This document shows positions 4,560 through 46,854 of a DNA stretch of 64,000 bases, one piece after another. Both the position numbers and the translations under genes were made by a program. The notes under the pieces are model-generated. The model worked only from the letters and a program-made list of their open reading frames with translations. It did no database searches and was not told the DNA's origin. Origin of the DNA: Acidimicrobiales bacterium (GTDB taxonomy: Bacteria; Actinomycetota; Acidimicrobiia; Acidimicrobiales; DATDAH01); NCBI GenBank assembly GCA_036525535.1, contig DATDAH010000199.1, positions 582 to 64,581 on the forward strand, written 5' to 3'. Position 1 is the stretch's first letter; each line of letters starts with the position of its first letter.

Positions 4560-6094
4560 GTGAAGGTGACCCCCTGGGCCAGTGGCAGCTCGTCGGAGTA
4601 GTTGACGGTGTTGGTGGCCCGGCGCATGTAGCCCCGCCAGGCGTCGGAGCCCGACTCCCGTCCGCCGCCGGTGTTCTTCTCGCCGCCGAAGGCGCCCCCG
4701 ATCTCGGCGCCCGAGGTCCCGATGTTGACGTTGACGATGCCGCAGTCGGAGCCGTCGGCGGCCAGGAAACGCTCGGCCTCCCGCTGGTCCGTGGTGAAGA
4801 TGGACGAGGACAGGCCCTGAGGGACGTCGTTGTGGAGGGCCACCGCCTCCTCCAGGCTGCGGTAGGTGAGGACGTAGAGCAGCGGGGCGAACGTCTCCCG
4901 CCGGACGACGTCGGTCTGGGCCGGCATCCGCACCAGGGCGGGCCGGACGTAGACGGCGTCGGGCGCCTCGTCGGCCGTCAGCGGCTCTCCGCCGGCCACG
5001 ACCTCGCCCCCCTCGGCCACCGCCTGATCGAGGGCGGCCCGCATGGCATCGGCTGCCCTCGGCGCGATCAGCGGCCCGACCATGGTCCCGTCGGCGAAGG
5101 GGTCGCCGACCGGGAGCCGTCCGAACACCTCGGCCAGCCGGCCGACCAGGTCGTCGACCAGCGACTCGTGGGCGATGACCCGGCGCAGGGTCGTGCAGCG
5201 CTGACCCGCCGTGCCCGCGGCGGCGAACACGATGCCCCGCACGGCCAGGTCGAGGTCGGCCGAGGGCGTGACCACGGCGGCGTTGTTGCCGCCGAGCTCG
5301 AGCAGGCAGCGGCCGAAGCGGGCCGCCACACGGGGGGCGACCAGGGCCCCCATGCGCTCCGAGCCGGTGGCGCTGACCAGGGCCACCCGGGGGTCGTCGA
5401 GCAGCGGGGCGGCGTCGTCGGGACCGGCGACGGCGAGCACGTTCAGGTCGCCCGGCGCGTCGACGTCGGCGGCCGCCCGGTCCAAGAGGGCGGAACACGC
5501 CATGGCGGTCAACGGCGTGGACTCCGACGGCTTCCAGACCACCGTGTCACCGCAGACGAGGGCCAGGGCCGCGTTCCACGACCAGACGGCGACCGGGAAG
5601 TTGAAGGCGCTGATGACGGCCACCACGCCCAGGGGGTGCCAGGTCTCCATCAGCCGGTGCCCCGGCCGCTCCGAGGGCATGGTGCGACCGTCGAGCTGGC
5701 GGGAGAGACCGACGGCGAAGTCGCAGATGTCGATCATCTCCTGGACCTCGCCCCGGGCCTCGGCTCCGATCTTGCCGACCTCGATGGCCACCAGGTCGGC
5801 GAGGTCCTGATGGTGCTCGTCCAGCAGGACCCCGAAGCGCTTCACCAGGGCACCCCGCACGGGAGCGGGGACGGTGCGCCATTCGAGGAAGGCGGCGTGG
5901 GCCCGACCGATGGCGGCGTCCATGCCGTCCCGGTCGACGCCCGGCACGGCGAAGAGCTCCTCGCCGGTGACCGGCGTCCGGGCCGTGATCGTCGGTCCGT
6001 CGCCGATCGCCGGATCCACCCCGCACCGCTCCAGGGCGCCTTGGGCTGACCGGGCCAGATCCTCAGTCGTGTGCTGGAGGTCGATCGTGGTCAC
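4556..6094 (-). CDS. ALDH7-type aldehyde dehydrogenase (L-piperideine-6-carboxylate / alpha-aminoadipic semialdehyde dehydrogenase)
   Basis: Antiquitin-type hallmarks 'GEVQEMIDICDFAVGLSR', 'ISAFNFPVAVWSWNAALA', 'ELGGNNA', 'GQRCTTLRR' and 'GIVNVNIGTSGAEIGGAFGGEKNTGGGRESGSDAWRGYMRR'. Confidence 0.88.
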   Translation of the reverse strand: MTTIDLQHTTEDLARSAQGALERCGVDPAIGDGPTITARTPVTGEELFAVPGVDRDGMDAAIGRAHAAFLEWRTVPAPVRGALVKRFGVLLDEHHQDLADLVAIEVGKIGAEARGEVQEMIDICDFAVGLSRQLDGRTMPSERPGHRLMETWHPLGVVAVISAFNFPVAVWSWNAALALVCGDTVVWKPSESTPLTAMACSALLDRAAADVDAPGDLNVLAVAGPDDAAPLLDDPRVALVSATGSERMGALVAPRVAARFGRCLLELGGNNAAVVTPSADLDLAVRGIVFAAAGTAGQRCTTLRRVIAHESLVDDLVGRLAEVFGRLPVGDPFADGTMVGPLIAPRAADAMRAALDQAVAEGGEVVAGGEPLTADEAPDAVYVRPALVRMPAQTDVVRRETFAPLLYVLTYRSLEEAVALHNDVPQGLSSSIFTTDQREAERFLAADGSDCGIVNVNIGTSGAEIGGAFGGEKNTGGGRESGSDAWRGYMRRATNTVNYSDELPLAQGVTFT

Positions 6095-10346: not shown

Positions 10347-10811
10347 ATGGACCGCGCCCTGGCCGAGAAGGCGGCCGCGCTCGCCGACGCCATCGACGCC
10401 GCGGTGACCCCGTGGCTGATCGGCGCCGTCCGGCGGGTCGCCGCTTCCCAACGCCTGCCCGGTGGGGACCGTTTCGTCCTGGCCGCCGAGACGGCGGCCA
10501 GGCAGGCCAAGGCCGAGGTCATGCCCCGGATCCGGGACCTGCTGACCACCGACATCGACGCGCAGACGACCACTCCGCTGGCCGTCCTCCGGGAGGGGAC
10601 GGGGCCGGCGACAGCCGTCCTGGCGGCGTTCGGCGCCCGACCGGTCGAGCGAGACGAGTTCGCGGTACGAGCCTTCCCGGATGACGTCTACGCCTTGGCT
10701 CCGGCCGCCTTCGAGGACGTCGCGCCGGAGCTGCGGGACCCGGGGATCGAGTGGGGGGCGGCCAAGGCCTTCGTCCATCTCCGCCGCCGCCGAGCCGAAG
10801 GCGTCGTCTAG
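10347..10811 (+). CDS. Hypothetical protein
   Basis: GC3-biased ORF starting at ATG 10347, divergent from the DUF427 gene. No recognisable domain. Confidence 0.45.
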   Translation: MDRALAEKAAALADAIDAAVTPWLIGAVRRVAASQRLPGGDRFVLAAETAARQAKAEVMPRIRDLLTTDIDAQTTTPLAVLREGTGPATAVLAAFGARPVERDEFAVRAFPDDVYALAPAAFEDVAPELRDPGIEWGAAKAFVHLRRRRAEGVV

Positions 10812-11323
10812 TCGGCCTCGGGGTCGGGCAGGGAGCCGGTGAGGGCGCCGACGGTGGCTTCGAGGAGCCAGCCGAGGTACTCGTAGGCGGCCTGGGCCGG
10901 CGCCTCGGGATCGTCGGGGTCGATGGGGCCGAGGTCGTCTTCGGAGACGTCGAGGCGGGTGCCCAGGACCAGGCGAAGGTCGTTGAAGGTCCGCAGCCAG
11001 GTACCGAGCTGCTCCTCGTCGAGCGACGGGAGCACGATCGTGGACTCGATCTCGTCGATGTTGGCCAACCGCCGGGCCAGGAGGTCGTCGTGGACCATGG
11101 CCTGGTACTCGGCCTCGAGGTCGTCGCGGCCGGCGTAGGCGGTGGGGAAGAGGCGGCGGACCCCGGACTCGTCGGTGATCTCGCTCCCGCCCTCCAGCTT
11201 CAGCAGCGTCCGGAGCTGGGCCAGCAGGGACTTCAGCAGGATCTGCTCGGGCTCGCTCAGGCGGATGGTGAAGGTCCCGTCCCGTTCCCGCCGGATCGGC
11301 CCGCCTCCGAAGCCGAACACCAT
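10808..11323 (-). CDS. DUF2017 domain-containing protein (ClpS-associated)
   Basis: An acidic 171-aa protein directly downstream of clpS with an ATGA overlap, which is the conserved actinobacterial clpS-DUF2017 arrangement. Confidence 0.65.
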   Translation of the reverse strand: MVFGFGGGPIRRERDGTFTIRLSEPEQILLKSLLAQLRTLLKLEGGSEITDESGVRRLFPTAYAGRDDLEAEYQAMVHDDLLARRLANIDEIESTIVLPSLDEEQLGTWLRTFNDLRLVLGTRLDVSEDDLGPIDPDDPEAPAQAAYEYLGWLLEATVGALTGSLPDPEAD

Positions 11324-11619
11324 CAGGTTGCGTCCTCCTGCTGCATCGTGGCCCAGAGGCCGTGCTCGTGGAGGCGGAACACGTCCAGCTCGGCCTTCTC
11401 CCGGGTCCCGTTCGAGACCACGGCCCGCCCCTTCTCGTGCACGTCCAGCATCAGGCTGGTGGCCTTCTCCAGCGAGTAGCCGAACAGCTTCTGGAACACG
11501 TAGGTCACATACGACATCAGGTTGATGGGGTCGTTCCACACGAGGACGATCCAGGGGCGGTCGGGGTCGACGACGTCGTCGACGTCGGGGACGTCGACCT
11601 CGGCCGGGGTGGTGCTCAC
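11323..11619 (-). CDS. clpS: ATP-dependent Clp protease adaptor ClpS
   Basis: '[44 protein letters not shown]'. GTG 11619 forms a GTGA overlap with the ctaA stop. Confidence 0.88.
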
Positions 11620-12551
11620 GCCGGCACCGGTTCGGCCGTCGAGGCGGGGGCGACCGGTGCGGGGTCGACCGTCCAGAGAGAGAGGTGGAGCTGGAGCACG
11701 GTGATCCACACCAGGGTGGCGCCGAGGACGTGGAGGGCGACCAGCCCCTCGGGCACACCGTTGAAGTACTGGAGGTAGCCGATGGTGATCTGGGCGGCGA
11801 CGGCGGCGAGCACGGGCCAGCCCCGACGGGTTCGGAGCATGAGGCCGAGAAGCAGGGCGGTGAGCAGCCAGGCGAAGGCGCCGTGCACGCGGGCCACCTC
11901 ACGGATGGCGAAGGGGAGGCGTTCGACATCGGGGTCGCCGCCGTGCGGCCCTGTCCCGGTGACCATCGTCCCGACGAAGATGACGATGGCGGTCACGGTC
12001 ACGGTGGCCCAGCCCAACCAGAGCGTCGTCGGCGTCACGTCCGGTCGCCGGACGCCGACGTCGGGCTCGCCGGCGCGGTGGTGCAGGATCACGGCGTCGG
12101 CCACCAGGGCCATCGAGAGCAGGAAGTGGGCCATCACCGCAGGCGGCGTCAGCTCCAGCAGGACGGTGACCCCGCCCAGCACGATCTGGGCCACGACGCC
12201 GGCCACCAGGCCCCAGGAAAGCAACGTGAGGTCCCGCCGGCGGGGCGTCCGCCGCAACGAGCCGAGCACGGCGGCGGCCACCGCGACCGACACCAGGCCG
12301 GTGATCATGCGGTTGACGAACTCGATGATCTCCGGTGTCTCCCGGAACTCCGAGACGATCTGGGCGCCGTCGCAGGTGGGCCAGTCCGGACAACCCAGCC
12401 CCGATCCGGTGAGGCGGACCGCGGCGCCGGTGACCACGATGAACACCAGGGCCACGAGGGCCAGGGCCGTCACCCGGCGGTACGCCGCAGGGGTCAGTTC
12501 GAGCCGCGTCACCCGCCAAAGGCTAGGGACGCGTCGCAGCGTCCTCCGCAT
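11616..12551 (-). CDS. ctaA: Heme A synthase (COX15/CtaA)
   Basis: '[15 protein letters not shown]' and multiple TM helices containing His ('MAHFLLS', '[10 protein letters not shown]', 'LVALHVLGA'). Start ATG 12551; the track ORF extends spuriously to 13595. Confidence 0.85.
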
Positions 12552-12590
12552 TGGGGACCGGGGGAAGTTGCCCCGTAGAGTCGGGCTCGC

Positions 12591-13478
12591 ATGGCGGTCA
12601 CGACCCTCACGTCGACGCGGTCCCGGCTCGGGGCCTATGTCGCCCTCACCAAGCCGAGGATCATCGAGCTCCTGCTCGTGACGACGGTGCCGGTCATGTT
12701 CGTGGCCGAGCAGGGCGTTCCTCCCCTGGGCCTGGTCCTGGTCACCGTCCTGGGCGGCTCCCTGGCCGCCGGCGGGGCCAACGCCATCAACATGGTCGTC
12801 GATCGCGACATCGACGCGCTCATGGAGCGGACCCGCAACCGCCCGCTGGTCACCGGTGAGCTGACACCGCGGGCGGCCCTCACCTTCGCCCTGGGCCTCG
12901 AGGTCGCCGCCTTCGCCCTGCTGTGGTGGCAGGTCAACCTGCTGAGCGCGGTGCTCGCCGTCTCGGCCTGCCTGTTCTACGTGTTCGTGTACACGCTCTG
13001 GCTGAAGCGGACCTCCCGCCAGAACATCGTCATCGGGGGCGCCGCTGGGGCCGTGCCCACCCTGATCGGCTGGACCGCGGTGACCGGCCAGCTGGCCTGG
13101 GCCCCCGTGGTGCTCTTCGCGGTCATCTTCTTCTGGACCCCACCCCACTTCTGGGCGCTGGCCATCCGCTACCGCGAGGACTACTCGGCGGCCTCGGTCC
13201 CCATGCTGCCCTCGGTCGCCGACGACGCCACCGTGGGCCGCCAGATCGTGGCCTACACGGTGATCGTCTGGGCCCTCACCCTGCTGTTCATCCCGGTCGC
13301 CGACATGGGCCTGCTCTACTCGGCCGCCGCCGTCGTGCTGGGGGCCGTGTTCACGGTCCAGAGCGTCCGCCTGCGGGACGATCCCACGCCGGAGCGGGCC
13401 ATGGCCCTGTTCCACTGGTCCATCACCTATGTGAGCGTCCTCTTCGGGGTGATGGCGGTGGATGCGTTGCTGTCGTGA
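12591..13478 (+). CDS. ctaB: Protoheme IX farnesyltransferase (heme O synthase)
   Basis: UbiA-family motifs 'NMVVDRDIDALMERTRNRPL' and 'FFWTPPHFWALA'. Divergent from ctaA. Confidence 0.92.
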   Translation: MAVTTLTSTRSRLGAYVALTKPRIIELLLVTTVPVMFVAEQGVPPLGLVLVTVLGGSLAAGGANAINMVVDRDIDALMERTRNRPLVTGELTPRAALTFALGLEVAAFALLWWQVNLLSAVLAVSACLFYVFVYTLWLKRTSRQNIVIGGAAGAVPTLIGWTAVTGQLAWAPVVLFAVIFFWTPPHFWALAIRYREDYSAASVPMLPSVADDATVGRQIVAYTVIVWALTLLFIPVADMGLLYSAAAVVLGAVFTVQSVRLRDDPTPERAMALFHWSITYVSVLFGVMAVDALLS

Positions 13479-13521
13479 TTCCCTCCGCTCCGGACCCCCT
13501 GTGTAAAGTCCCGAACCGGCC

Positions 13522-15141
13522 ATGACCGTGACCGAGACCCCATCGTCCGCGCCCCCCGAGACGACCTCCGACCGCGATCCGGCCGACGACGGCACTCACC
13601 GCGAGCTGCGGGGGCTGCCTGCGGTCCTCGGCACAGGCGACCACAAGACCGTCGGCCGCGTGTGGATCGGCGCGTCGGGACTCTTCCTGCTGCTCATCGC
13701 CGTGGCCGGGGTCCTGCTGAGCGTCGAGCGGATCACGGTCGACGAGCTCGAGGTCCTCGGCAACGACCACGTCCTGCAGTTCTTCTCGCTCTACCGCGTC
13801 GGCATCACGTTCCTGGTCGTCCTGCCCCTCTTCATCGGCTTGGCCACTGCGATCGTGCCCCTGCAGGTCGGCGCGTCGACCATCGCCTTCCCCCGGGCCG
13901 CGGCCGCCGCGCTCTGGACGTGGGGCGGCGGCGCCGTCCTCCTACTGCTCAGCTACGCCATCGACGGCGGGGTCGCCGCCACGGAGAGCCTCGAGCCCGA
14001 CGCCATCGCCCTCGGCCTGTTGGGCCTCGGCCTGGTCATTGCCGGCCTGCTCCTGGCCTCGGTCTGCGTGGTCACCACCGTCATCGCCCTACGCCCGCGA
14101 CACATGTCACTGCTGCAGGTGCCGCCCTTCGCCTGGTCGATGCTGGTGGCGGGGGTGGTGTGGCTGCTCTCCCTGCCGGTCCTGATGGGCGGGCTCCTCC
14201 TGGCCTACCTGGACCTGCGCTACGGCCAGGTCCTCTTCGGCCAGCCCGCGGAGCTCTTCTCCCGCCTCGAGTGGGCTTTCGCCCAGCCGCAGGTCTACGC
14301 CATGGCCATCCCCGTCCTCGGCGTGGTGGCCGAGATCGTGCCCGTCTCCGCCGCCGCGGTCCAGCGTCACCGCGGGACCGTCTGGGCCGGCATCGGCGGC
14401 TTCGGCATCCTGGCCTTCGGGGCGTGGGCCCAGCCCCGCTACTACCCGGATCTGCTCACCGAGGCGCTCTACATAGGCATGGCCTTCGCCATCGGCCTGC
14501 CCGTCCTGCTCGTGTTCGGCGGCATGGCCGACAGCGCCCGTCACAACCGGCCCAAGCTGCATCCCGCGTTCCTCCTGTCGATGCTCGGCCTGTTGCTGCT
14601 GCTGGTTGCGGTCGGGGCCGGGGCCGCCGCCGTCGTCGAGCCCTTCCACCTCCTGGGCACCACCTGGGTGGTCGGGCAGATGAACTTCGTCTTCACCGCC
14701 TCGCTCGTGGCCGCCGTCGCCGCCATCTGCTGGTGGGCCCCCAAGATCTGGGGCCGGCACGTCCCCTCCGTCCTGGCCATCGCCGCCGGGCTCCTGGTCG
14801 CCGGTGGTGGGGTCGTGCTCGCCGCCGCCGAATGCGTCGCCGGCATGCTCGACGAGCCGGCCAACTCCTTCGAGGGCTTCGACCCTCGCGACGGCGTCGA
14901 CACCTTCAACCTGATCGCCGCCATCGGTTCGATCGTGCTCGCGGTGGGTGCGCTCGTCGCCGTCCTCGCCCTGCTGCGGGTGATCGCCGGTCGCCGCCCC
15001 GCCGCCGACGCCGCCGATCCCTGGGGCGGCCAGACCCTCGAGTGGTCGGCTCCTTCCCCCCCGCCGACGGGCAACTTCCCCGAGCCCGTGCCCGAGGTGA
15101 CGTCGGCCACGCCGCTGGTCGCCGCCGAGGACGAGGCGTAG
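13522..15141 (+). CDS. Cytochrome c oxidase subunit I-like membrane protein lacking all canonical heme/CuB histidine ligands
   Basis: It aligns by eye along its whole length to the true CtaD at 17731-19746 ('GDHKTVG', 'PLQVGASTIAFPR', 'QPQVYAMAIPVLGVVAEIVPV', 'DPWGGQTLEWSAPSPPPTGNF'). However 'MHG' becomes 'LYR', 'GHPEVY' becomes 'AQPQVY', 'AHHMF' becomes 'AQPRY' and 'HFHYV' becomes 'QMNFV'. Confidence 0.8.
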   Translation: MTVTETPSSAPPETTSDRDPADDGTHRELRGLPAVLGTGDHKTVGRVWIGASGLFLLLIAVAGVLLSVERITVDELEVLGNDHVLQFFSLYRVGITFLVVLPLFIGLATAIVPLQVGASTIAFPRAAAAALWTWGGGAVLLLLSYAIDGGVAATESLEPDAIALGLLGLGLVIAGLLLASVCVVTTVIALRPRHMSLLQVPPFAWSMLVAGVVWLLSLPVLMGGLLLAYLDLRYGQVLFGQPAELFSRLEWAFAQPQVYAMAIPVLGVVAEIVPVSAAAVQRHRGTVWAGIGGFGILAFGAWAQPRYYPDLLTEALYIGMAFAIGLPVLLVFGGMADSARHNRPKLHPAFLLSMLGLLLLLVAVGAGAAAVVEPFHLLGTTWVVGQMNFVFTASLVAAVAAICWWAPKIWGRHVPSVLAIAAGLLVAGGGVVLAAAECVAGMLDEPANSFEGFDPRDGVDTFNLIAAIGSIVLAVGALVAVLALLRVIAGRRPAADAADPWGGQTLEWSAPSPPPTGNFPEPVPEVTSATPLVAAEDEA

Positions 15142-15756
15142 ATGGCCACCACTGCTGAGCCCGCCGGGCCCGAGCCGATGTACCCCGCGCTCGCCTCCCC
15201 GCCCGCCCCCGCCCGCCCCCGCGTGCTGCTGGTGGCCACGGTGCTGGGGTCCTCAGCCGTGGTCATGGCCTTCGCTGCCCTCATCGGGGCCTATGTCGCC
15301 CTCCGGGCCGGCACCGACGGGGCCTGGCTGCCGGAGGGCGTGGTCATCCCGCTCTCGCCGCCCAACATGGGTGCGGTCACCCTCCTGATGTCGGCGATCG
15401 CCCTGCAGTGGGCCCGCTACTCGATCGCCAACGACGACCGGCCCAACGCCTACGTGGCCCTCGGCCTGACCCTGGTCCTCGGCCTGGCCTACGTCAACTC
15501 GGCGGTCTACCTGTTCACCCAGATGGGGGCGGCGATCGGCCGCAGCATCCCCGAGCTGATGCTCTACGTCATCGGCGGCTTCCACATCGCCACCATCATC
15601 GCCGCGATGGTGTTCGTGGCCCTGATGGCGTTCCGCACCCTCGGGGGCCAGTACTCCGGGCGGGACAGCGAAGGCATCGCCGCCGCCGCCATCTTCTGGA
15701 ACGCCTCGGTCGCGATCTACATCGTGATCTGGTACGCCGTCTACGTGACCAAGTAG
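15142..15756 (+). CDS. Cytochrome c oxidase subunit III-like membrane protein (divergent paralog)
   Basis: 5-TM protein aligning to CtaE ('GGFHIATIIAAMV' against 'TGFHGVHVTVGIL'; 'IFWNASVAIYIVIWYAVYV' against 'LYWHFVDIIWIVIFTVVYL'). It starts 1 nt after the upstream stop. Confidence 0.7.
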   Translation: MATTAEPAGPEPMYPALASPPAPARPRVLLVATVLGSSAVVMAFAALIGAYVALRAGTDGAWLPEGVVIPLSPPNMGAVTLLMSAIALQWARYSIANDDRPNAYVALGLTLVLGLAYVNSAVYLFTQMGAAIGRSIPELMLYVIGGFHIATIIAAMVFVALMAFRTLGGQYSGRDSEGIAAAAIFWNASVAIYIVIWYAVYVTK

Positions 15757-15762
15757 GAGCTC

Positions 15763-16530
15763 ATGGTTGGTACCGGCTCTCGCCTGTTCTTCGCCTACAC
15801 CGTCCTCGCCCTTCTCGGGGCGGCGGTGTACGGCCTCGCCAGCGGTGGCGATGTCGTGGGCGTCCTCACCCTCGGCTACAAGGGCGGGGTCGGTGAGCAC
15901 TTCGGGTACGCCGTGCTCGTCCTCCTCGGGGCCTCGACCCTGGTCCTCGGCCTGTTCAGCGTCGCCCTGCGAGACGCCGATCCGGACGCCACCGCGGCCC
16001 TCCAGTCCAGCGACGTCCTGCCCGAGGTGGCGCCGCCCGCCTCGGCCAGCCCCTGGCCGTTGGTCGGGGCCTTCGGCCTCGTGGTCGCCGCCCTCGGCCT
16101 GGTCGTCGGGCCCGGCCTCTTCGTCCTCGGTCTGGTCCTGCTCGCCGTCACCGCCGTCGAGTGGGCCGTTCAGGTGTGGGCCGATCGGGCCACGGGTGAC
16201 CCCGAGGTGAACCGGGCGATCCGCAACCGGCTGATGGCGCCGATCGAGATCCCCGTGGGCGCGGTCCTGGTCATCCTCTTCGTCGTCCTCGGCATCTCCC
16301 GGGTGCTGCTCGCCGTCTCGCCCCTGACCGCGGTGGTCGTCGCTTCGGCCGCCGCCAGCCTGATCATGGTCGGGGCGATCATCGTGTTCATCCGCCCCCG
16401 GCACAGCGGAACGCTGGCCACCGCGTTCCTCCTCCTGGGCGCACTGGCCATCATCGGCGGCGGCATCGCCGGCGTGGCCGCGGGCGAGCGCGACTTCCAC
16501 GAAGAGCCGGCGCACGAGGCCGGTGAGTAG
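15763..16530 (+). CDS. Hypothetical polytopic membrane protein (about 6 TM)
   Basis: Hydrophobic GC3-biased ORF lying 6 nt after the CoxIII-like gene and 5 nt before ctaC. No recognisable family. Confidence 0.6.
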   Translation: MVGTGSRLFFAYTVLALLGAAVYGLASGGDVVGVLTLGYKGGVGEHFGYAVLVLLGASTLVLGLFSVALRDADPDATAALQSSDVLPEVAPPASASPWPLVGAFGLVVAALGLVVGPGLFVLGLVLLAVTAVEWAVQVWADRATGDPEVNRAIRNRLMAPIEIPVGAVLVILFVVLGISRVLLAVSPLTAVVVASAAASLIMVGAIIVFIRPRHSGTLATAFLLLGALAIIGGGIAGVAAGERDFHEEPAHEAGE

Positions 16531-16535
16531 GGGCG

Positions 16536-17723
16536 ATGACCGACTTGGAGGCCCCCGATCCGGTGGGTCACACTCGGCCGGTGAGGTCCTCCCGCCTGCG
16601 CACCCTGGCCCTCGGCCTCCTCCTGGTGGTGGTCGCCGCCGGCTGCGCCAGCGACGCGCCCCTGGACACGCTGGACCCGAAGGGCCCCGAGGCCCAGTCG
16701 ATCGACAACCTGCTCCTGCCGGTCATGCTCATCGCCGGGGTCGTGTTCCTGTTCGTCGAGCTGGGCATCGTCTACCTCGTCGTCCGCTTCCGGAGGCGCA
16801 AGCGCGACGACGACTCGGAGCTGCCCAGCCAGACCCACGGCAACCTCGTGCTCGAGCTGGGCTGGACGATCCTGCCCGCGGTCATCCTGGCCTTCGTGGC
16901 CGTGGGCACCCTGACCACCCTGTTCGACATCGACGATGAGCCCGAGGACGCCCTGGAGATCGACGTCGTGGGCCAACAATGGTGGTGGGACTTCCAGTAC
17001 GACGTCGACGGTGACGGGACCTACGACTTCCGCACTGCGAACGAGATGATCATCCCCGCCGGGGAACCGGTCAACCTCGACATCACCTCGATGGACGTGA
17101 TCCACAGCTTCTGGATCCCCGCCCTGAACGGCAAGAAGGACGCCGTGCCCGGCCGGCACCACCCGCTGACGTTGGAGGCCGACGAGCCCGGGACCTACTG
17201 GGGCCAGTGCACCGAGTTCTGCGGGTTGTCTCACGCCAACATGCGCATCCGGGTCATCGCCCTGCCCCAGGACGAGTACGACGCGTGGCTGGAGAACCAG
17301 GTGCGGCCGGCCGAGGCCGCCACCGGTGACGCGGTGGACGGCGAAGCGCTGTTCTCGTCGACCTGCACCTCCTGCCACCAGATCCGCGGCCTCAACGACG
17401 ACTACACCGGGGCAGCGACCGTCTCGGGCACCGCGCCGGAGCTGACCCACCTCATGACGCGGTCGACCTTCGCCGGCTCCATCTTCCGCCTCTACGCGCA
17501 GGCCGATGACGCGGACCTGCACGACTTCTACACCCACCTGGCCGAGGAGGGCACGTTCAACCGGGTGCAGCTCGAGGCCTGGTTGCGCGATCCGCCCGCC
17601 GAGAAACCCATGTACGCCGACACCGCCACCCTGAACGGCGCGCTGCCCCGTGGCATGCCCGACCTCGAGCTCGGCGAGGAGCAGATCGATCAGCTCGTGG
17701 CCTACCTACAGACCCTGGACTGA
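16536..17723 (+). CDS. ctaC: Cytochrome c oxidase subunit II with fused C-terminal cytochrome c domain (caa3-type)
   Basis: Lipobox 'VVVAAGCAS'. CuA motif 'HSFWIPALNGKKD...GQCTEFCGLSHANM'. Heme c motif 'CTSCHQIRG'. Confidence 0.92.
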   Translation: MTDLEAPDPVGHTRPVRSSRLRTLALGLLLVVVAAGCASDAPLDTLDPKGPEAQSIDNLLLPVMLIAGVVFLFVELGIVYLVVRFRRRKRDDDSELPSQTHGNLVLELGWTILPAVILAFVAVGTLTTLFDIDDEPEDALEIDVVGQQWWWDFQYDVDGDGTYDFRTANEMIIPAGEPVNLDITSMDVIHSFWIPALNGKKDAVPGRHHPLTLEADEPGTYWGQCTEFCGLSHANMRIRVIALPQDEYDAWLENQVRPAEAATGDAVDGEALFSSTCTSCHQIRGLNDDYTGAATVSGTAPELTHLMTRSTFAGSIFRLYAQADDADLHDFYTHLAEEGTFNRVQLEAWLRDPPAEKPMYADTATLNGALPRGMPDLELGEEQIDQLVAYLQTLD

Positions 17724-17730
17724 GGCACCC

Positions 17731-19746
17731 GTGGCACTCACCGAAGAACGCCCACTCGCTCTGCCCGCCGCCGCTGACGGCGACGACGACTTCCAGCCGC
17801 TGGGTGTGTTCCGTCGCCCGGCGACGACCACCGGCTGGCGGAGCTGGGTCACCACCGTCGACCACAAGCGCATCGGCATCATGTATGGCGTCGCCGCCTT
17901 CTTCTTCTTCTGCGTCGGCGGCAGCGAGGCCCTGCTCATCCGCACGCAGCTGGCCCGCCCGGGCAGCGACCTGCTCTCGGCCAACACCTACAACCAGGTG
18001 TTCACCATGCACGGCGTCACCATGGTGTTCCTGGTGATCATGCCCATGGCTGCGGCGTTCGCCAACTACCTGCTGCCCCTCCAGATCGGGGCCAGGGACG
18101 TCGCCTTCCCCCGGATGAACGCCTTCAGCCTGTGGTGCTTCCTGGCCGCCGGCATCTTCGTCAACACCAGCTGGTTCCTCGGCGGTGGCCCCGACGGGGG
18201 CTGGTTCGCCTACGCCCCGAACACCGGCGTCGTCTTCTCGCCGTCCCACGGCCTCGACTTCTTCAGCCTCGGCCTGCTCATCGCCGGCATCGCCTCGCTG
18301 GCCAGCGCCGTCAACCTGACCGTCACCGTGCTCAACATGCGGGCGCCGGGGATGGACCTGATGAAGATGCCGGTGTTCACCTGGATGATCCTGGTCGTCC
18401 AGGTGCTCCTGGTGCTGGCCCTGCCGGTGATCACCGTGGCTCTGGTCCTGCTGACCCTGGACCGGCTCTTCGGCGCCAACTTCTTCAACGTCTCCCAGGG
18501 CGCCGACCCGCTCCTCTGGCAGCACCTGTTCTGGATCTTCGGCCACCCCGAGGTCTACATCCTGATCCTGCCCAGCTTCGGCATCGTGTCCGAGGTCATC
18601 CCGGTCTTCAGCCGCAAGCCCATCTTCGGGTACCCGTTCATGGTCGCCTCGGGCATCGCCATCGGCTTCATGGGCTGGGGCGTGTGGGCCCACCACATGT
18701 TCGTCTCCGGGCTCGGGCCCATCTCGGTGGCGGCCTTCGCCCTGTCGACCATGTTCATCGCCGTGCCCACCGGGGTGAAGATCCTCAACTGGATGGCCAC
18801 CATGTGGGGGGGCAAGCTCGAGTTCACCACGGCGATGCTCTTCGCCATCGGGTTGGTGGGCATGTTCACCATCGGTGGGCTTTCGGGCGTGACCCACGCC
18901 GTGGCCCCGGCCGACACCCAGCAGACCGACACCTACTACATCGTCGCCCACTTCCACTACGTCCTCTTCGGCGGAGCCATGATGGGCCTCTTCTCCGGCT
19001 TCTACTTCTGGTGGCCCAAGATCTTCGGCCACGTCCTCAACGAGAGGTTGGGCAAGGTCCACTTCTGGCTGATGTTCATCGGCTTCAACCTGACGTTCGG
19101 GCCCATGCACATCCTCGGCCTGCAGGGCATGTCCCGCCGGATCTACACGTACGAAGAGGGCCTCGGCTTCGACCTCTGGAACATGGTCTCCTCGATCGGG
19201 GCCTTCACGATCGCCGTGTCCATCCTGGTCTTCCTGGCCAACGTGGTCCGCAGCCGGCTCAACGCCGCCAGCGCCCCGCCGCCGGGCCCCGACCCGTGGG
19301 ACGCCCGCAGCCTCGAGTGGATGCTCCCGTCGCCCACCCCGGCCCACAACTTCGACGAGATCCCGACGGTCACCCGGCTCGACGAGTTCTGGCACCGCAA
19401 GTACGGCACCGACGAGAACGGGCGCACCGTGCGCATCGCCGAGACCGAGGAGGTGGCCCAGAAGGGTGACGCCACTGGCGTCCACCTGCCGTCACCGTCC
19501 TACTGGCCCCTGGTCGTGGCGCTGGGCCTCCCCCTGATCGGCTACGGCCTGATCTTCAACCTGGCCTGGGCCGTCCCCGGCGTGCTCCTGGTGCTGGGTG
19601 GGATCTACGGCTGGGGTCTCGAGCCCGCCGACGACGACGAGAACCCGCCGCACCACCACGCTCCGGCCGACGCCGTCGCCGCCGGCGACGACCCCGCGGC
19701 CGAGTTGGCGGCTGCGCCCGAGACCGAGGAGGTCGCCGGTGGCTGA
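17731..19746 (+). CDS. ctaD: Cytochrome c oxidase subunit I, with a C-terminal 2-TM extension
   Basis: All canonical motifs are present: 'FTMHG', 'FGHPEVYILILP', 'WAHHMF', 'VAHFHYVLFGG'. Start GTG 17731. The extra tail is 'SPSYWPLVVALGLPLIGYGLIF...GGIYGWGLEP...PPHHHAP'. Confidence 0.92.
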   Translation: MALTEERPLALPAAADGDDDFQPLGVFRRPATTTGWRSWVTTVDHKRIGIMYGVAAFFFFCVGGSEALLIRTQLARPGSDLLSANTYNQVFTMHGVTMVFLVIMPMAAAFANYLLPLQIGARDVAFPRMNAFSLWCFLAAGIFVNTSWFLGGGPDGGWFAYAPNTGVVFSPSHGLDFFSLGLLIAGIASLASAVNLTVTVLNMRAPGMDLMKMPVFTWMILVVQVLLVLALPVITVALVLLTLDRLFGANFFNVSQGADPLLWQHLFWIFGHPEVYILILPSFGIVSEVIPVFSRKPIFGYPFMVASGIAIGFMGWGVWAHHMFVSGLGPISVAAFALSTMFIAVPTGVKILNWMATMWGGKLEFTTAMLFAIGLVGMFTIGGLSGVTHAVAPADTQQTDTYYIVAHFHYVLFGGAMMGLFSGFYFWWPKIFGHVLNERLGKVHFWLMFIGFNLTFGPMHILGLQGMSRRIYTYEEGLGFDLWNMVSSIGAFTIAVSILVFLANVVRSRLNAASAPPPGPDPWDARSLEWMLPSPTPAHNFDEIPTVTRLDEFWHRKYGTDENGRTVRIAETEEVAQKGDATGVHLPSPSYWPLVVALGLPLIGYGLIFNLAWAVPGVLLVLGGIYGWGLEPADDDENPPHHHAPADAVAAGDDPAAELAAAPETEEVAGG

Positions 19747-20350
19747 CGCCACGATCGCCGCCCCGGGCGAGCCCCATGCCGGGGGCCACGCCACCAGCAC
19801 GGGCCTCTCCAACGAGAAGCTGGGGATGTGGGTGTTCCTGTCCTCGGAGTGCCTGCTGTTCGGTGGGCTCATCTCCACCTACCTGCTGCTGCACGACCGG
19901 TCGGTCGAGGGGCCGACGCCCCAGGACGTCTACGACATCCCCTTCACGTCGGTCTCCTCGTTCGTCCTCCTCATGAGCTCGCTGACCATGGTGCTGGCCG
20001 TGTCGGCCCTGACCCGGGGCGACATGCGTCGGAATCGGCTGTGGCTGCTGACCACCGCCCTGCTGGGCACGATCTTCATCGGTGGCCAGGTCTACGAGTT
20101 CACCACGTTCGTGCGGGAGGGCCTCGGGTTCACCACCAACATCTTCGGCTCGGCCTTCTACACGCTGACCGGGTTCCACGGGGTCCACGTGACCGTGGGC
20201 ATACTCATGCTCCTGTCGCTGGTCGGTCTGTCCCTCCGGGGGACCCTCAGCCAGGAACGGGCCGAGACGGTCGAGATCATCGGCCTCTACTGGCACTTCG
20301 TGGACATCATCTGGATCGTCATCTTCACCGTCGTCTACCTGGCAGCCTGA
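19739..20350 (+). CDS. ctaE: Cytochrome c oxidase subunit III (short 5-TM type)
   Basis: 'LGMWVFLSSECLLFGGL', 'FYTLTGFHGVHVTVG', 'LYWHFVDIIW'. GTG 19739 overlaps the ctaD stop (GTGGCTGA). Confidence 0.9.
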   Translation: MADATIAAPGEPHAGGHATSTGLSNEKLGMWVFLSSECLLFGGLISTYLLLHDRSVEGPTPQDVYDIPFTSVSSFVLLMSSLTMVLAVSALTRGDMRRNRLWLLTTALLGTIFIGGQVYEFTTFVREGLGFTTNIFGSAFYTLTGFHGVHVTVGILMLLSLVGLSLRGTLSQERAETVEIIGLYWHFVDIIWIVIFTVVYLAA

Positions 20351-20357
20351 GGTCACG

Positions 20358-20705
20358 ATGAGCAGCACCGACGCCCTGACCGACGAGGAATACGAGGCGC
20401 TGCCGACCGAGCCGGACCAGACCGGGGCCCACCACCCGACCGAGCTGCTGTACGTAAAGGTCGCCGCTCTCCTCGCCGCCATCACCCTGGCCGAGATCAG
20501 CACCTACTGGTTCGACTTCGGTGACTTCCTCCTCCCGGCCCTGATCACGATGATGGTCGTGAAGTTCGCTCTGGTCATCGGGTACTTCATGCACCTGCGC
20601 TTCGACAACCGGATCTTCACCCGGGTGTTCCTGTCCGGGCTGTTCATCGCTATTGCGGTGTACATCGTCATGCTCACCACCTTCCACTACTGGCAGAACC
20701 CGTAG
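20358..20705 (+). CDS. ctaF: Cytochrome c oxidase subunit IV (prokaryotic COX4_pro / Bacillus CtaF type)
   Basis: 115 aa with 3 TM and 'KFALVIGYFMHLRFD', typical of the CyoD/CtaF family. Confidence 0.8.
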   Translation: MSSTDALTDEEYEALPTEPDQTGAHHPTELLYVKVAALLAAITLAEISTYWFDFGDFLLPALITMMVVKFALVIGYFMHLRFDNRIFTRVFLSGLFIAIAVYIVMLTTFHYWQNP

Positions 20706-20711
20706 GTCCCC

Positions 20712-21638
20712 GTGCTGGCCGCCAACGAAGCCGCCTGGCGCTGGCAGCCGCACCCCGAGGTCTGGCTCCTGGTCCTCGGGGTCGTCGCCCTCTCGCTCTA
20801 CGTGACCCGGGTCATCGGCCCCAAGGTCGTGCCCGCCGGCCAGCCGGTCCTGAGGCGCCGGCAGGCGGTCTGCCTGGTCGCCGGGATCCTGACCCTGTGG
20901 CTGGCCTCGGACTGGCCCCTGCACGACCTCGGCGAGGAGTACCTGTTCTCGCTGCACATGACCCAGCACCTGTTGCTGAGCTACGTGATGCCGCTGCTCT
21001 TCCTGCTGGCCACGCCGCCCTGGCTGGCCCGCCTGGTCGTCCCCGAGGGGTCGGCGTCCTACCGGTGGCTGCACCGGTTCTCCCGGCCCCTGGTCGCAGG
21101 CCTCCTGTTCAACGCCGTGGTCGTCTTCACCCATTGGCCCGCGCTGGTCAACAAGGTCGTGACCAACGGTCCCATGCACTACGGGATCCACGTGCTGGTG
21201 GTGGCCAGCGCCGTGCTCATGTGGATGCCGGTGTTCGGCCCCTTCGCCGAGTGGCGCATGTCCAGCCCGCCCGCCATGGCCTACCTCTTCGCCATGTCCC
21301 TGCTGCCGACGGTGCCGGCCTCGTGGCTGATCTTCGCCGACGGGTCGGTCTACAACGTGTACGACACGCCGTTCCGCCTGTGGGGCGTGTCGGTCACGTC
21401 CGACCAGCAGGCCGCCGGCGTGATCATGAAGCTGGTCGGTGGCTCCTATCTCTGGATGTTGATCGGTGTGGTGTTCTTCCGCTGGGCCTACGCCCAGCAG
21501 AGCAACGACCCGGTCCGCATCGCCCACACCCGGACCCCGCGCTGGGACCCCTCCGACGACGCGCTCACCTTCGACGCCGTCCAGGCCGCCTTCGACGCCG
21601 CGGGCTCGGCCCCGGCCGAACAGGACACGTCCGCATGA
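20712..21638 (+). CDS. ctaG: Cytochrome c oxidase assembly factor CtaG (caa3_CtaG family)
   Basis: 'FSLHMTQHLLLSYVMPLLFLLATP' and 'HYGIHVLVVASAVLMW', in a polytopic protein at the end of the cta operon. Confidence 0.8.
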   Translation: MLAANEAAWRWQPHPEVWLLVLGVVALSLYVTRVIGPKVVPAGQPVLRRRQAVCLVAGILTLWLASDWPLHDLGEEYLFSLHMTQHLLLSYVMPLLFLLATPPWLARLVVPEGSASYRWLHRFSRPLVAGLLFNAVVVFTHWPALVNKVVTNGPMHYGIHVLVVASAVLMWMPVFGPFAEWRMSSPPAMAYLFAMSLLPTVPASWLIFADGSVYNVYDTPFRLWGVSVTSDQQAAGVIMKLVGGSYLWMLIGVVFFRWAYAQQSNDPVRIAHTRTPRWDPSDDALTFDAVQAAFDAAGSAPAEQDTSA

Positions 21639-22420
21639 TCCTCGAAGGCAAGACCGTCATCGTCTCCGGCGTGGGCCCTGGCCTCGGCGGGGAGGTGGCC
21701 CGGCTCGCCGTGCGCGACGGGGCCAACGTCGTCATGGCCGCCCGGTCGGCGGAGAAGCTGGCGGCGGCGGCGACCGAGCTGGACCCCTCGGGGGACCGCG
21801 TCCTGGCCGTACCCACCGACATCGGGGACCTGGCTGCCTGCACGGCCCTCGTCACCGCCGCCACCGACCGCTTCGGCGCCGTGCACGCGGTGGCCCAGGT
21901 GGCCGCGGTCGACACCGCCCTCGGCAACCTGGCGGCCTCGTCCGACGACGACTGGCGCCGCTGCTTCGACACCAACGTGGTCGGGTCGATGAACGTGGTC
22001 CGGGCCGTGACCCCCGCCTTGCGGGACGCGGGGGGCGGGGCCGTGGTCCTGATCGGCTCCCAGTCCGCGGTCCTGCCGCCGACGCTCATGCCCCAGATCG
22101 CCTACGCCGCCTCCAAGGGCGCGCTCCTCTCGGCCATGTACCACCTCGCCGACGAGCTGGGCCCCGACCGCATCCGGGTGAACGTCGTCATCCCCACGTG
22201 GATGTGGGGCCCGCCGGTCCAGATGTACGTGGACTGGCAGTCCGGTGAGCGCCAGGTGTCGCCCGAGGCGGTCATGGGGGAGATCACGGCCAACATGTCG
22301 ATCCCCGAGATCCCGGCCGACGAAGACGTGGCCGAAGCGGTGATCTGGCTCTGCTCGGACCGGGCTCGCATGGTCACGGGCCAGTCCCTCATGGTGAACG
22401 CGGGCGAGCTCAAAGGCTGA
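21635..22420 (+). CDS. SDR family oxidoreductase
   Basis: 'GKTVIVSGVGPGLGGEVA' Rossmann motif and catalytic 'YAASKGAL'. ATGA overlap with the ctaG stop. Confidence 0.85.
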   Translation: MILEGKTVIVSGVGPGLGGEVARLAVRDGANVVMAARSAEKLAAAATELDPSGDRVLAVPTDIGDLAACTALVTAATDRFGAVHAVAQVAAVDTALGNLAASSDDDWRRCFDTNVVGSMNVVRAVTPALRDAGGGAVVLIGSQSAVLPPTLMPQIAYAASKGALLSAMYHLADELGPDRIRVNVVIPTWMWGPPVQMYVDWQSGERQVSPEAVMGEITANMSIPEIPADEDVAEAVIWLCSDRARMVTGQSLMVNAGELKG

Positions 22421-22465
22421 CCCGGAGGCCTCAAGACCGGAGGCCCCACAGCCGACGGGTGAACC

Positions 22466-22963
22466 GTGCTCGAGTCCGCTCCCCCTGACGCCTCGCGGGT
22501 CACCGCATTCGACCCGGACGCGGCGCGCACCTTGTCGGGCCGCCCCGTGGTCGACGGGACGGCCACCCGGCCGGCCACGCGGGTCGGTCGCGGCACGGTG
22601 GTGTTCGCGGTGACCCTGGCCGTGGCCCTGGTCGTCGGGGTCAGCCTGGTATTGCTGCGCCGAGGCCCCGAGGGCACCGACGTCCGGGCGATGGCGCCGG
22701 GCGACTGCTACGTCGAGACCGACGTGGTGGAGGAGGACGGTCGGTCGGTGCCCTACGGGACCGACACCCCCTGCCTGTCCATCTCCCCCCGGATCGTGGC
22801 CGTGGTCGCGCTACCCATCGGGCCCTATCCCGGCGAGGCCGGCTTCGACCAGGTGGTGGCCGATCGCTGCGGGGGGGAGGCCGACATCATCGTGGCCCCG
22901 ACGTCGAACACCTGGCCCGCGGGCGATCGCACCGTGGTCTGCATCGCCCTCCCCGAGGTCTGA
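22466..22963 (+). CDS. Hypothetical membrane-anchored protein (septum-formation-like Cys-containing ectodomain)
   Basis: A single TM 'VVFAVTLAVALVVGVSLVLL', then a small domain with 4 Cys. Assignment is weak. Confidence 0.45.
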   Translation: MLESAPPDASRVTAFDPDAARTLSGRPVVDGTATRPATRVGRGTVVFAVTLAVALVVGVSLVLLRRGPEGTDVRAMAPGDCYVETDVVEEDGRSVPYGTDTPCLSISPRIVAVVALPIGPYPGEAGFDQVVADRCGGEADIIVAPTSNTWPAGDRTVVCIALPEV

Positions 22964-46829: not shown

Positions 46830-46854
46830 GAATCGGCGCCGTACGCTCGACCCC

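Follow-up and report, generated by a model that had tools for sequence, protein, structure and literature searches.

In hundreds of Acidimicrobiia species, the caa3 oxidase operon carries three additional genes whose products resemble the membrane core of a heme-copper oxidase (HCO), and the first of them encodes a subunit I paralog that has the COX1 fold and none of the metal ligands. We studied these genes in a 64,000-nucleotide stretch of an Acidimicrobiales genome (contig DATDAH010000199.1), called the window below, where they encode a dead subunit I paralog (dCoxI), a divergent subunit III paralog (dCoxIII), and a third protein. The module occupies a fixed position in the operon and evolves under purifying selection. 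We suggest, tentatively, that it may serve as a structural partner of the active enzyme.

The three open reading frames lie on the forward strand where they had been described, with GC3 of 0.93-0.97, and the identity of the flanking genes bears out the placement of the module, with ctaB on one side and a full set of caa3 genes on the other (Table 1). Transcription of ctaA diverges from that of ctaB, and dCoxI starts 43 nt downstream of the end of ctaB. The junctions that follow are tight: the stop codon of dCoxI abuts the start codon of dCoxIII (TAG/ATG, 0 nt), dCoxIII and the third gene are separated by 6 nt (TAGGAGCTCATG), and the third gene and ctaC by 5 nt (TAGGGGCGATG). SD-like sequences overlap the stop codons at the module junctions, with spacers of 0-6 nt. 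The module and the caa3 oxidase genes probably share a transcript, and their translation is probably coupled.

Table 1. Coordinates in the window of the module, of elements within its third protein, and of the neighbouring genes.
Feature	Position	Strand	Basis or remark
ctaA (heme A synthase)	11616-12512	-	89% identity to the gene bearing PF02628 in the related locus L084
ctaB (heme O synthase), first + strand gene of the cluster	12591-13478	+	PF01040, E 2.3e-68
dCoxI, 539 aa	13522-15141	+	PF00115, CtaD alignment, AF2, Foldseek
dCoxIII, 204 aa	15142-15756	+	PF00510
Third protein, 255 aa, 7 predicted TM helices	15763-16530	+	AF2, CtaF-like and cupredoxin-anchor matches
SxWP hairpin (TM3-TM4) of the third protein, CtaF/DUF7541 type	16048-16179	+	
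Most conserved element of the third protein, VEWxVxxWADRATGDPEVNRxIRNRLMxPxExP	16156-16254	+	
GERDFH motif and short His/Glu-rich tail, C-terminus of the third protein, predicted periplasmic	16483-16527	+	
Working caa3 oxidase genes, ctaC-ctaG	16536-21638	+	
ctaC	16536-17723	+	CuA and CTSCH heme c site
ctaD	17731-19746	+	All ligands present, C-terminal CtaF-like hairpin
ctaE	19739-20350	+	
ctaF	20358-20705	+	
ctaG (Caa3_CtaG)	20712-21638	+	

The original prediction of a full-length CoxI paralog agrees with both searches made with dCoxI: it matches positions 2-436 of the 436 of the PF00115 profile (E 2.6e-38), and it aligns from end to end with the true CtaD of the window (27% identity, E 9e-42). 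Its AF2 model (pLDDT 91.5, pTM 0.92) has the 12-TM COX1 fold and superposes on Corynebacterium and Mycobacterium CtaD with TM scores of 0.83-0.85 in Foldseek. As had been claimed, every position that carries a metal ligand is substituted, and the alignment places no histidine at any of them. In the order dCoxI/true CtaD, the positions are Y91/H94 and N388/H409 for heme a, Q386/H407 for heme a3, and Q255/H272, Q304/H321, and P305/H322 for CuB, i.e., none of the six histidines required in HCO subunit I (0/6). The heme-propionate pair Arg469/470 is missing too, and none of the residues of the A-family proton pathways is present, whether the D-channel Asp (T120/D123), the gating Glu (Q257/E274), or the K-channel Lys (V331/K350). 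The tyrosine is retained (Y259/Y276), also in 109 of 120 close homologs. CuB His1 and His2 are absent from all 124 operons scored. At two CuB positions the residue is glutamine, in 113/120 and 104/120 of the close homologs and in 95/124 and 107/124 of the operons. Among the 284 positions of true CtaD conserved at 95% or more, 76 are kept in dCoxI, mostly in loops and at structural Gly, Pro, and Trp. The protein scores below the curated equivalog cut-off of TIGR02891 (CtaD; 204.7 bits vs 670.75) and below that of NF050116 (180.9 bits vs 880). An NJ quartet on the origin of dCoxI gave 62% vs 33%. NO reductase-type HCO families have heme ligands and a three-residue FeB/CuB site made of His or of His/Asp. 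We rejected the assignment of dCoxI to these or other non-O2 families (cNOR, qNOR, eNOR, bNOR, sNOR, gNOR, nNOR), since it has no His/Asp set at the ligand positions. NO reductases and other non-O2 HCO families keep an active site (PMC11214002).

The second gene had been described as divergent and subunit III-like, and dCoxIII indeed matches PF00510 over residues 52-202 (E 5.3e-12; 46.6 bits, for a Pfam gathering cut-off of 23.8), as expected of the five-helix bundle in the C-terminal part of subunit III, so that both the COX1 and the COX3 profiles recognise the module. It shares 24% identity with the true CtaE and differs from it at 46 positions that are invariant in true CtaE. Its best matches in the PDB are Paracoccus and mitochondrial COX3 (53 bits; E down to 3e-13), followed by Mycobacterium CtaE (37 bits), with CyoC/QoxC at about 15 bits. 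Searches against the named subunit III families of NCBIfam (CtaE_Actin, CyoC, QoxC) gave no orthology, the best score being 50.8 bits vs a cut-off of 190.

The third protein had been called an unrecognisable 6-TM protein, and here our results differ: its AF2 model (pLDDT 73.7) has seven long helices, and it appears to be a CtaF-like 4-TM part fused to the 3-TM anchor of a membrane-bound cupredoxin. A Pfam search places the protein in no family; the window sequence has no PF12270 match and hits only DUF7541, weakly (E 0.0026, residues 93-129). PF12270 matches at E<0.1 were obtained for 11 of 44 family members (best 2.8e-6), and one relative (P0275) exceeds the cut-off (31.1 bits vs 26.9). The profile match in the PDB is to "Cytochrome c oxidase polypeptide 4" (9wcx_m, E 0.01), and the top Foldseek match is 6hwh_S (139 aa), with a probability of 1.0 but an E of 0.05 and a TM score of 0.44. 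A hairpin of the same SxWP type is fused to the C-terminus of true CtaD. W98 is invariant across the family, as are E133, W134, T144, G145, D146, N150, R154, R156, P160, E162, and P164 among 44 sequences. The latter belong to the motif after TM4, which is also kept in the cupredoxin-bearing forms and is predicted by the positive-inside rule to be a cytoplasmic loop. The window protein ends 15 residues past its last helix, without a cupredoxin domain (PF13473/PF00127); relatives carry such a domain at the position of the GERDFH motif and tail. The long relatives bear PF13473, and in seven of them (P0182, P0275, P0291, P0316, P0331, P0335, P0370) the domain has type-1 Cu ligands. The C-terminal half matches a stand-alone protein, a membrane-anchored type-1 Cu protein (3TM-cupredoxin) encoded after ctaG in three loci (L150, L151, L152) of Actinomycetota without the module. 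The two have in common the 3-TM anchor and the GEREFH motif and, when relatives of the third protein are considered, the His/Cys/His/Met cupredoxin; unlike the stand-alone form, the window protein has no cupredoxin domain and its anchor is fused to a CtaF-like protein. Since this cupredoxin is encoded right after ctaG, the match links the module to the supply of electrons to caa3 from the periplasm. CtaC (PF02790 and PF00116) was rejected as the source of the C-terminal half (hhalign probability below 2% between 46 long third proteins and 51 CtaC sequences).

In a collection with one genome per species, at least 578 loci show the confirmed pattern of the module, and the third protein gave 739 clusters at E<1e-10; among the 80 matches listed, nearly all are from Acidimicrobiia. 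The order ctaB, dCoxI, dCoxIII, third gene, ctaCDEFG is kept in all of the approximately 140 loci with enough flanking sequence, and none of them has the module anywhere but at the cta operon. As had been proposed, the reading frames are intact and the selection on them is purifying: over about 19 independent pairs, the median dN/dS is 0.15 for dCoxI, 0.09 for dCoxIII, and 0.13 for the third gene, to be compared with 0.15 for ctaC and 0.08 for ctaD. The values between the window and L084 are 0.29, 0.20, and 0.15, respectively. At equal divergence, dCoxI evolves faster than true CtaD (35-47% vs 68-78% identity).

The cofactor sites form a gradient among relatives. An intact CxxHxxxM cupredoxin is found together with both low-spin heme histidines in three loci, two of them nearly identical, on which the link between type-1 Cu and bis-His sites rests (L087, L088, L097); the Arg pair is also kept in L087 and L088. 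Ligand-less cupredoxin domains, kept by about a third of the relatives, occur in 19 loci whose dCoxI lacks the low-spin heme His pair. The forms without a cupredoxin domain, including that of the window, mostly lack the heme ligands too. The order in which the cofactors were lost may be read from this gradient.

The closest known system is the A-family core of Actinomycetota (CtaD/CtaE/CtaF of the bcc-aa3 supercomplex; PDB 6hwh, 6adq, 7q21, 8hcr), which has the same folds and a comparable set of subunits (I, III, IV-like). Mycobacterial and corynebacterial CtaD are the best matches of dCoxI in both sequence and structure, and the third protein appears to resemble CtaF in its N-terminal half. 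Unlike that core, the module lacks the ligands of heme a, heme a3, and CuB as well as the proton channels, has no subunit II, has three extra helices in its IV-like protein, and has its genes within a separate caa3 operon that is itself complete. A precedent within the superfamily is subunit II of quinol oxidases (CyoA/QoxA), where the cupredoxin fold was kept after the loss of CuA, and which the ligand-less cupredoxin domains of many third-protein relatives resemble; however, quinol oxidases keep an active subunit I, whereas here subunit I itself lost the metals. Membrane-anchored cupredoxins encoded with oxidase genes, such as AcoP of Acidithiobacillus or sulfocyanin, may be comparable. Inactive paralogs are also kept as parts of complexes in the bc1 core proteins, derived from MPP, and in NifEN relative to NifDK. 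As in the module, a duplicated enzyme subunit remained under selection after the loss of catalytic residues, but these protein families are unrelated to ours, for which the partner and the role are inferred.

The explanation that we favour, to which we give nearly an even chance, is that the module forms a non-redox structural sub-complex attached to caa3 and descended from a cupredoxin-linked oxidase paralog. The products of the three genes would amount to an oxidase membrane core copied without its cofactors, i.e., a subunit I shell, a III-like protein, and a IV-like protein with a cupredoxin anchor, which would itself perform neither redox chemistry nor proton pumping. It would sit in the membrane beside the active caa3 as a scaffold, or "dead protomer", that gives order or stability to the oxidase or its supercomplex, and, in relatives, it would hold a periplasmic cupredoxin near the electron entry site. 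The ancestor was probably a second complex of the oxidase type that had a low-spin heme and received electrons from a cupredoxin, and whose O2-reducing centre would have been lost in the common ancestor of the family and the other redox centres lineage by lineage. In favour of this reading are the intact fold without the chemistry, the selection on the module, its fixed position, the link to the cupredoxin, the gradient of cofactor sites, and the apparent homology of all three proteins to structural subunits I, III, and IV and to no known assembly factor. Among the roles first proposed, heme A hand-off fares worse than the scaffold because dCoxI has neither axial ligands nor the propionate-binding Arg pair to hold heme A, and the fusion of CtaF-like and cupredoxin-anchor parts, together with the type-1 Cu and bis-His sites of relatives, also favours the scaffold over it.

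A dead I/III/IV shell could instead be a platform for biogenesis, a transient assembly scaffold or chaperone of the real oxidase that receives new subunits, or that delivers copper (through the His-rich tail or the cupredoxin-like domain) or the heme A made by CtaA/CtaB, perhaps as NifEN does for nitrogenase. We regard this main rival as rather unlikely, though it accounts for several observations. The module directly follows ctaB and is near ctaA and ctaG; since these three genes share the cluster, position alone does not tell a structural role from one in assembly. Many third proteins have periplasmic tails rich in His/Asp/Glu, after a conserved GEREFHH motif, that could bind copper and would then fit biogenesis, most cupredoxin-like domains of the family lack type-1 Cu ligands, and copper chaperones also use cupredoxin folds. 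However, searches of Pfam and NCBIfam with the three proteins gave no match to Surf1, Cox11, Caa3_CtaG, Sco, or PCuAC, the ancestral cupredoxin has the canonical His/Cys/His/Met site of electron transfer, and a chaperone made of around 1000 membrane-protein residues, as strongly selected as ctaC, would be a heavy one. Furthermore, related caa3 operons assemble without the module: other Actinomycetota run an operon of the same type without it, so the enzyme does not generally need it. That the module is an independent active membrane complex, which conducts ions or protons, acts as a sensor, or catalyses a reaction with a non-canonical cofactor bound by Gln/Tyr, seems improbable. What replaces the histidines is not random but conserved, with Gln at two of the CuB positions, and Tyr259 is conserved too, as is the predicted cytoplasmic loop motif of the third protein, but His-to-Gln is a single-base change that may be an inherited ancestral state, the channel residues and gating Glu are lost, few highly conserved CtaD positions are kept outside loops and structural residues, and the module is at the cta operon in all of the approximately 140 loci. 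By far the least probable reading, in which an oxidase operon was duplicated and the module is its decaying, functionless remnant, would explain the loss of every cofactor site and the faster evolution relative to true CtaD; it is contradicted by reading frames intact in short-read assemblies, dN/dS of 0.09-0.15, high GC3, and a gene order conserved across the entire class.

We found no published description of the module in literature searches, and no curated family claims its proteins, whose NCBIfam scores are far below the cut-offs, in line with the initial failure to map it to a described subunit. Its annotation in public databases as a second oxidase is a mislabel: dCoxI is a "cbb3-type cytochrome c oxidase subunit I" at NCBI and a "heme/copper-type oxidase subunit 1" at JGI. 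MAGs of Acidimicrobiia are abundant in soil and sea water as well as in activated sludge and mine drainage. Because of these names, their metabolic reconstructions may credit them with a non-existent second terminal oxidase; in the Bacteria section of one MAG study, caa3 is given along with cbb3, which might possibly correspond to dCoxI.

Six histidines define HCO subunit I, and a large family under selection without any of them is an unexpected pseudoenzyme, which raises the question of what an oxidase scaffold does apart from the chemistry. It is possible, at somewhat less than an even chance, that the entire class runs caa3 as an obligate pair of an active enzyme and a metal-free "pseudo-oxidase" (I'/III'/IV'-anchor). 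If so, this would be the first HCO subunit I lineage known to persist free of cofactors, its relatives would preserve the steps from type-1 Cu and low-spin heme to a ligand-less cupredoxin and then to nothing, and the path by which a respiratory enzyme became a structural protein would be directly traceable and testable. The natural intermediates (type-1 Cu with bis-His heme, ligand-less cupredoxin, and none) are open to expression and comparison. Should the module belong to the mature enzyme, the structures of actinobacterial respiratory complexes miss a whole class of architecture.

The three genes of the dead module, which encode a dead subunit I paralog (dCoxI), a divergent subunit III paralog (dCoxIII), and a third protein, lie in a run of 9-10 tightly packed genes on the + strand (12591-21638, GC3 0.93-0.97), next to the genes of the working, or true, caa3 oxidase. 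dCoxI and dCoxIII abut at their stop and start codons (TAG|ATG), the junction between dCoxIII and the third gene reads TAGGAGCTCATG, and that between the third gene and ctaC reads TAGGGGCGATG; these sequences fit translational coupling of the three genes. A consensus scan of 11500-22500, weak evidence in a genome with 70% GC, turned up nothing inside the cluster that convinces as a promoter or terminator: the single promoter-like site (on the - strand, 0.4 expected from shuffles) is uninformative in a 70% GC actinobacterium, as is the single terminator-like site (inside ctaB, 2.2 expected). The trio ctaA-ClpS-DUF2017 stands beside the cta cluster in every relative with called genes listed upstream of ctaB (loci L001-L003 and L084-L089, and the contig of protein P0109); in L089, CtaA and ClpS are called as a single 393-aa product.

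Genes of the oxidase cluster and its upstream flank (window positions)
Gene	Position	Strand	Features
DUF2017 gene	10808-11323	-	after the ClpS gene
ClpS gene	11326-11619	-	directly after ctaA, 4-nt overlap
ctaA	11616-12512	-	divergent from the + strand cluster
ctaB	12591-13478	+	UbiA family, E 2e-68
dCoxI (gene 1)	13522-15141	+	539 aa
dCoxIII (gene 2)	15142-15756	+	204 aa
Third protein (gene 3)	15763-16530	+	255 aa
ctaC	16536-17723	+	COX2_TM, COX2, C-terminal cytochrome c domain with CTSCH motif
ctaD	17731-19746	+	true subunit I
ctaE	19739-20350	+	true subunit III
ctaF	20358-20705	+	COX4_pro
ctaG	20712-21638	+	Caa3_CtaG

dCoxI covers the whole PF00115 profile (E 2.6e-38), aligns end to end with the neighbouring true CtaD at 27% identity, and has a predicted structure of 12 helices (pLDDT 91.5, pTM 0.92) that matches corynebacterial and mycobacterial CtaD with TM 0.83-0.85. 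The original prediction that this protein has lost every metal ligand is borne out at all six histidine positions: H94 (helix II) and H409 (helix X), the heme a ligands of the true CtaD, are replaced by Y91 and N388, the heme a3 ligand H407 by Q386, and the CuB ligands H272, H321, and H322 by Q255, Q304, and P305. The gating Glu (E274) has become Q257, the D-channel Asp (D123) T120, and the K-channel Lys (K350) V331; the heme-propionate Arg pair (R469/R470) is without counterpart, and the cross-link Tyr (Y276) is kept as Y259. The true CtaD of the window has all of these residues. In 61 true Acidimicrobiia CtaD sequences, 284 positions show at least 95% conservation; the dead family retains 76 of them, mainly Gly, Pro, and Trp, together with the loop motifs DH, PLQxGAxxxAFPR, RxxxMxLxxxPxxxW, WxxKxxG, and DPWxxxxLEWxxxSPxP.

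This is a large family with a fixed genetic organisation. A large protein collection contains 583 relatives of dCoxI at E<=1e-20, and two family-specific peptide patterns matched at least 599 stretches in a collection with one genome per species, at least 578 of which were upheld by tblastn. Almost all of the 80 pattern matches listed are Acidimicrobiales/Acidimicrobiia MAGs (Microthrixaceae, Iamiaceae, Aldehydirespiratoraceae, Acidimicrobiaceae, and Rhabdothermincola), and among these matches the window's nearest named relatives, with 74% identity, belong to the Microthrixaceae. At E<1e-10 the third protein has 739 clusters, each counted by its representative at 50% identity. The insertion between ctaB and ctaC that was noticed in the window recurs in every locus with enough flank: the order ctaB/dCoxI/dCoxIII/third protein/ctaC/ctaD/ctaE/ctaF/ctaG is found in 83 of 83 genome-derived and 60 of 60 metagenome loci, unchanged even where dCoxI is down to 27% identity to that of the window. 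At equal divergence the dead genes retain 35-47% identity and the real ones 68-78%, so the former change more quickly; they are nevertheless clearly constrained. In keeping with the expectation, from the sequence alone, that they are under selection, all three show purifying selection, with median dN/dS of 0.15, 0.09, and 0.13 for genes 1, 2, and 3 over about 19 independent pairs, as compared with 0.15 for ctaC, 0.08 for ctaD, and 0.11 for ctaB. Between the window and the relative locus L084 the values are 0.29, 0.20, and 0.15; in this same pair ctaF (71% amino acid identity) reaches 0.72, far above the other genes of the cluster. Four long-contig Microthrixaceae MAGs (L004, L005, L007, L017) show split tblastn matches in several cta genes, true and dead, a pattern more suggestive of frameshifts introduced by assembly than of pseudogenes.

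dCoxIII scores above the Pfam COX3 threshold (E 5e-12), shares 24% identity with the true CtaE, and is altered at 46 positions invariant in CtaE. Its nearest solved relatives are Paracoccus and mitochondrial COX3 and mycobacterial CtaE, whereas the true CtaE is nearest to CyoC/QoxC. The affinities of dCoxI run in the same direction, with 159 bits against mycobacterial CtaD and 126 against B. subtilis QoxB, the reverse of the order seen for the true CtaD (522 and 543 bits, respectively), and the third protein also points to aa3/actinobacterial types. A recent tandem copy of the adjacent ctaD and ctaE is thus unsupported. These comparisons lean towards an aa3-type enzyme of Actinomycetota as the source of the dead module, in preference to a recent copy of its neighbours. 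However, a neighbour-joining quartet (468 columns, 200 bootstraps) groups the dead with the mycobacterial protein in only 62% of replicates and with the true one in 33%.

The third protein had been described as unrecognisable, with six transmembrane helices. It is indeed a membrane protein, but its AF2 model has seven long helices (pLDDT 74), and its N-terminal ~140 residues resemble CtaF. The Pfam search found no family for the window protein itself; 11 of 44 family members match PF12270 (best 2.8e-6), one of them, P0275, above the gathering score. The family profile retrieved "cytochrome c oxidase polypeptide 4" from the PDB (E 0.01), and the sole notable Foldseek match is 6hwh_S (139 residues, probability 1.0, E 0.05, 22% identity). 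Homology of this N-terminal part to the actinobacterial subunit IV, CtaF, is therefore likely, if unproven for the window protein. The 44-member alignment shows the motifs GYKGGVGEHxGY, RDADP, and SxWP, and an outstanding VEWxVxxWADRATGDPEVNRxIRNRLMxPxExP. At its C-terminus the true CtaD is extended by two helices (SPSYWPLV..., residues ~588-635, 19492-19635) that weakly match PF12270 (actinobacterial subunit IV, E 2.9e-4) and DUF7541, a type of hairpin also present in the third protein; with ctaF counted in, the real enzyme has a CtaF-like hairpin as a fusion and COX4_pro as a subunit of its own.

The C-terminal half of the third protein is not a degenerate subunit II, as a CtaF-CtaC fusion would have it (hhalign against CtaC, probability <2%); instead, its matches lie in a distinct family of 3TM-anchored cupredoxins. 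Of the 148 best third-protein representatives, 49 (about one in three) are 330 aa or longer, and their tails look like a C-terminal cupredoxin-like domain of ~100 residues, PF13473 being matched in 6 of 10 long proteins scanned. The type-1 copper ligands His...Cys-x2-His-x3-Met are kept in seven (P0182, P0275, P0291, P0316, P0331, P0335, P0370); most cupredoxin-bearing proteins have none of them. In short proteins, including that of the window, the chain ends behind a conserved GEREFH motif, frequently bearing a repetitive tail rich in His/Asp/Glu (e.g., HADEDHADEDHADE) or Thr/Pro; such tails are possibly what is left of a lost cupredoxin domain, as metal-binding or linker segments in the periplasm. 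The positive-inside rule would place the tail in the periplasm, in agreement with a cupredoxin attached there. A stand-alone gene of ~230 aa, made of the three C-terminal helices, GEREFH, and the cupredoxin, overlaps the ctaG stop in caa3 operons of other Actinomycetota that are without the dead module (L150, L151, L152), so the third protein looks like a CtaF-like protein fused to an oxidase-associated membrane cupredoxin anchor. In L151 and L152, which represent another Actinomycetota lineage, the caa3 operon, which ends with this gene and has no dead module, is headed by a CtaA-CtaB fusion of ~590 aa (3226-5001 and 3240-5021), with genes for ResB/CcsA/CcdA and a cytochrome b/Rieske cluster in the vicinity.

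Among the dead subunit I proteins of 124 operons, none has the first or the second CuB histidine, 3 have His at the third CuB position, 6 have His at the heme a3 position, and both low-spin heme histidines survive in 9. An intact type-1 copper motif occurs in three loci (L087, L088, L097), all of them among these nine; L087 and L088, nearly identical to each other, also keep the Arg pair. In all 19 loci with ligand-less cupredoxin domains the low-spin heme pair is absent, some retaining one His. A strict link between a bis-His dCoxI and the cupredoxin is rejected by L089 and the P0109 contig, which are bis-His with a short third protein.

These intermediates would fit a start as a paralogous oxidase-like complex (subunits I', III', and IV' plus a cupredoxin) whose O2-reducing centre disappeared ahead of the family's diversification. 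Most lineages would later have lost the remaining redox centres, blue copper and low-spin heme, while the polypeptides would have stayed under selection without ever leaving the cta operon. The idea of a functionless relic runs counter to the selection data, and because no means of electron or proton transport is left in the window form, what is selected there must be a non-redox function. We tentatively regard a structural role beside the active caa3, as a dead protomer or as a scaffold that originally docked a cupredoxin donor, as the most likely reading, because all three proteins derive from structural subunits, their genes lie inside the run of structural genes with probable translational coupling, selection on them is as strong as on subunit II, and the ancestral cupredoxin ties the module to electron entry into caa3.

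The main rival, a platform for oxidase biogenesis, appears rather unlikely: the ctaA/ctaB/ctaG neighbourhood and the predicted His-rich periplasmic tails speak for it, but residues to hold heme are completely absent and related operons manage without the module. An independent transporter, sensor, or enzyme, to which only the conserved Gln replacements and a conserved cytoplasmic loop would point, seems improbable. Turning to the surroundings of the putative structural module, none of 20 further window ORFs scanned is a qcr/bc gene that would link it to a supercomplex. CcdA-like (DsbD_TM) and thioredoxin-like (AhpC-TSA/Redoxin) proteins, likely components of cytochrome c maturation or thiol reduction, are encoded ~10 kb downstream of the oxidase cluster (31293-32788, - strand). 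Unrelated to the dead module are the genes at 46071-47391, for a membrane protein with a Urate_ox_N-like region (PF06181, E 2e-16) and, next to it, an RsiG-like anti-sigma factor (PF22802, E 3e-29) as well as an HTH regulator.

In public annotation these proteins go under names that are either unspecific or incorrect: "cbb3-type cytochrome c oxidase subunit I" (the NCBI label of the dead subunit I proteins P0017, P0085, and P0096), "hypothetical protein", and, for relatives, "plastocyanin". A MAG study gives caa3 and cbb3 oxidases for MAGs in its section on Bacteria (PMC8357290), and this listing may be an annotation artefact of the dead subunit I gene. The newly described NOR-type families all keep their active site (PMC11214002). 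In the open-access literature searched we found no description of a ligand-less subunit I, not even in recent surveys that deal with the heme-copper superfamily or with oxidase assembly proteins, which does not prove novelty, and no curated model covers the three dead-module proteins. On these grounds we rate the dead module as a pseudoenzyme branch of the heme-copper oxidase core whose set of intermediates is unusual and informative.
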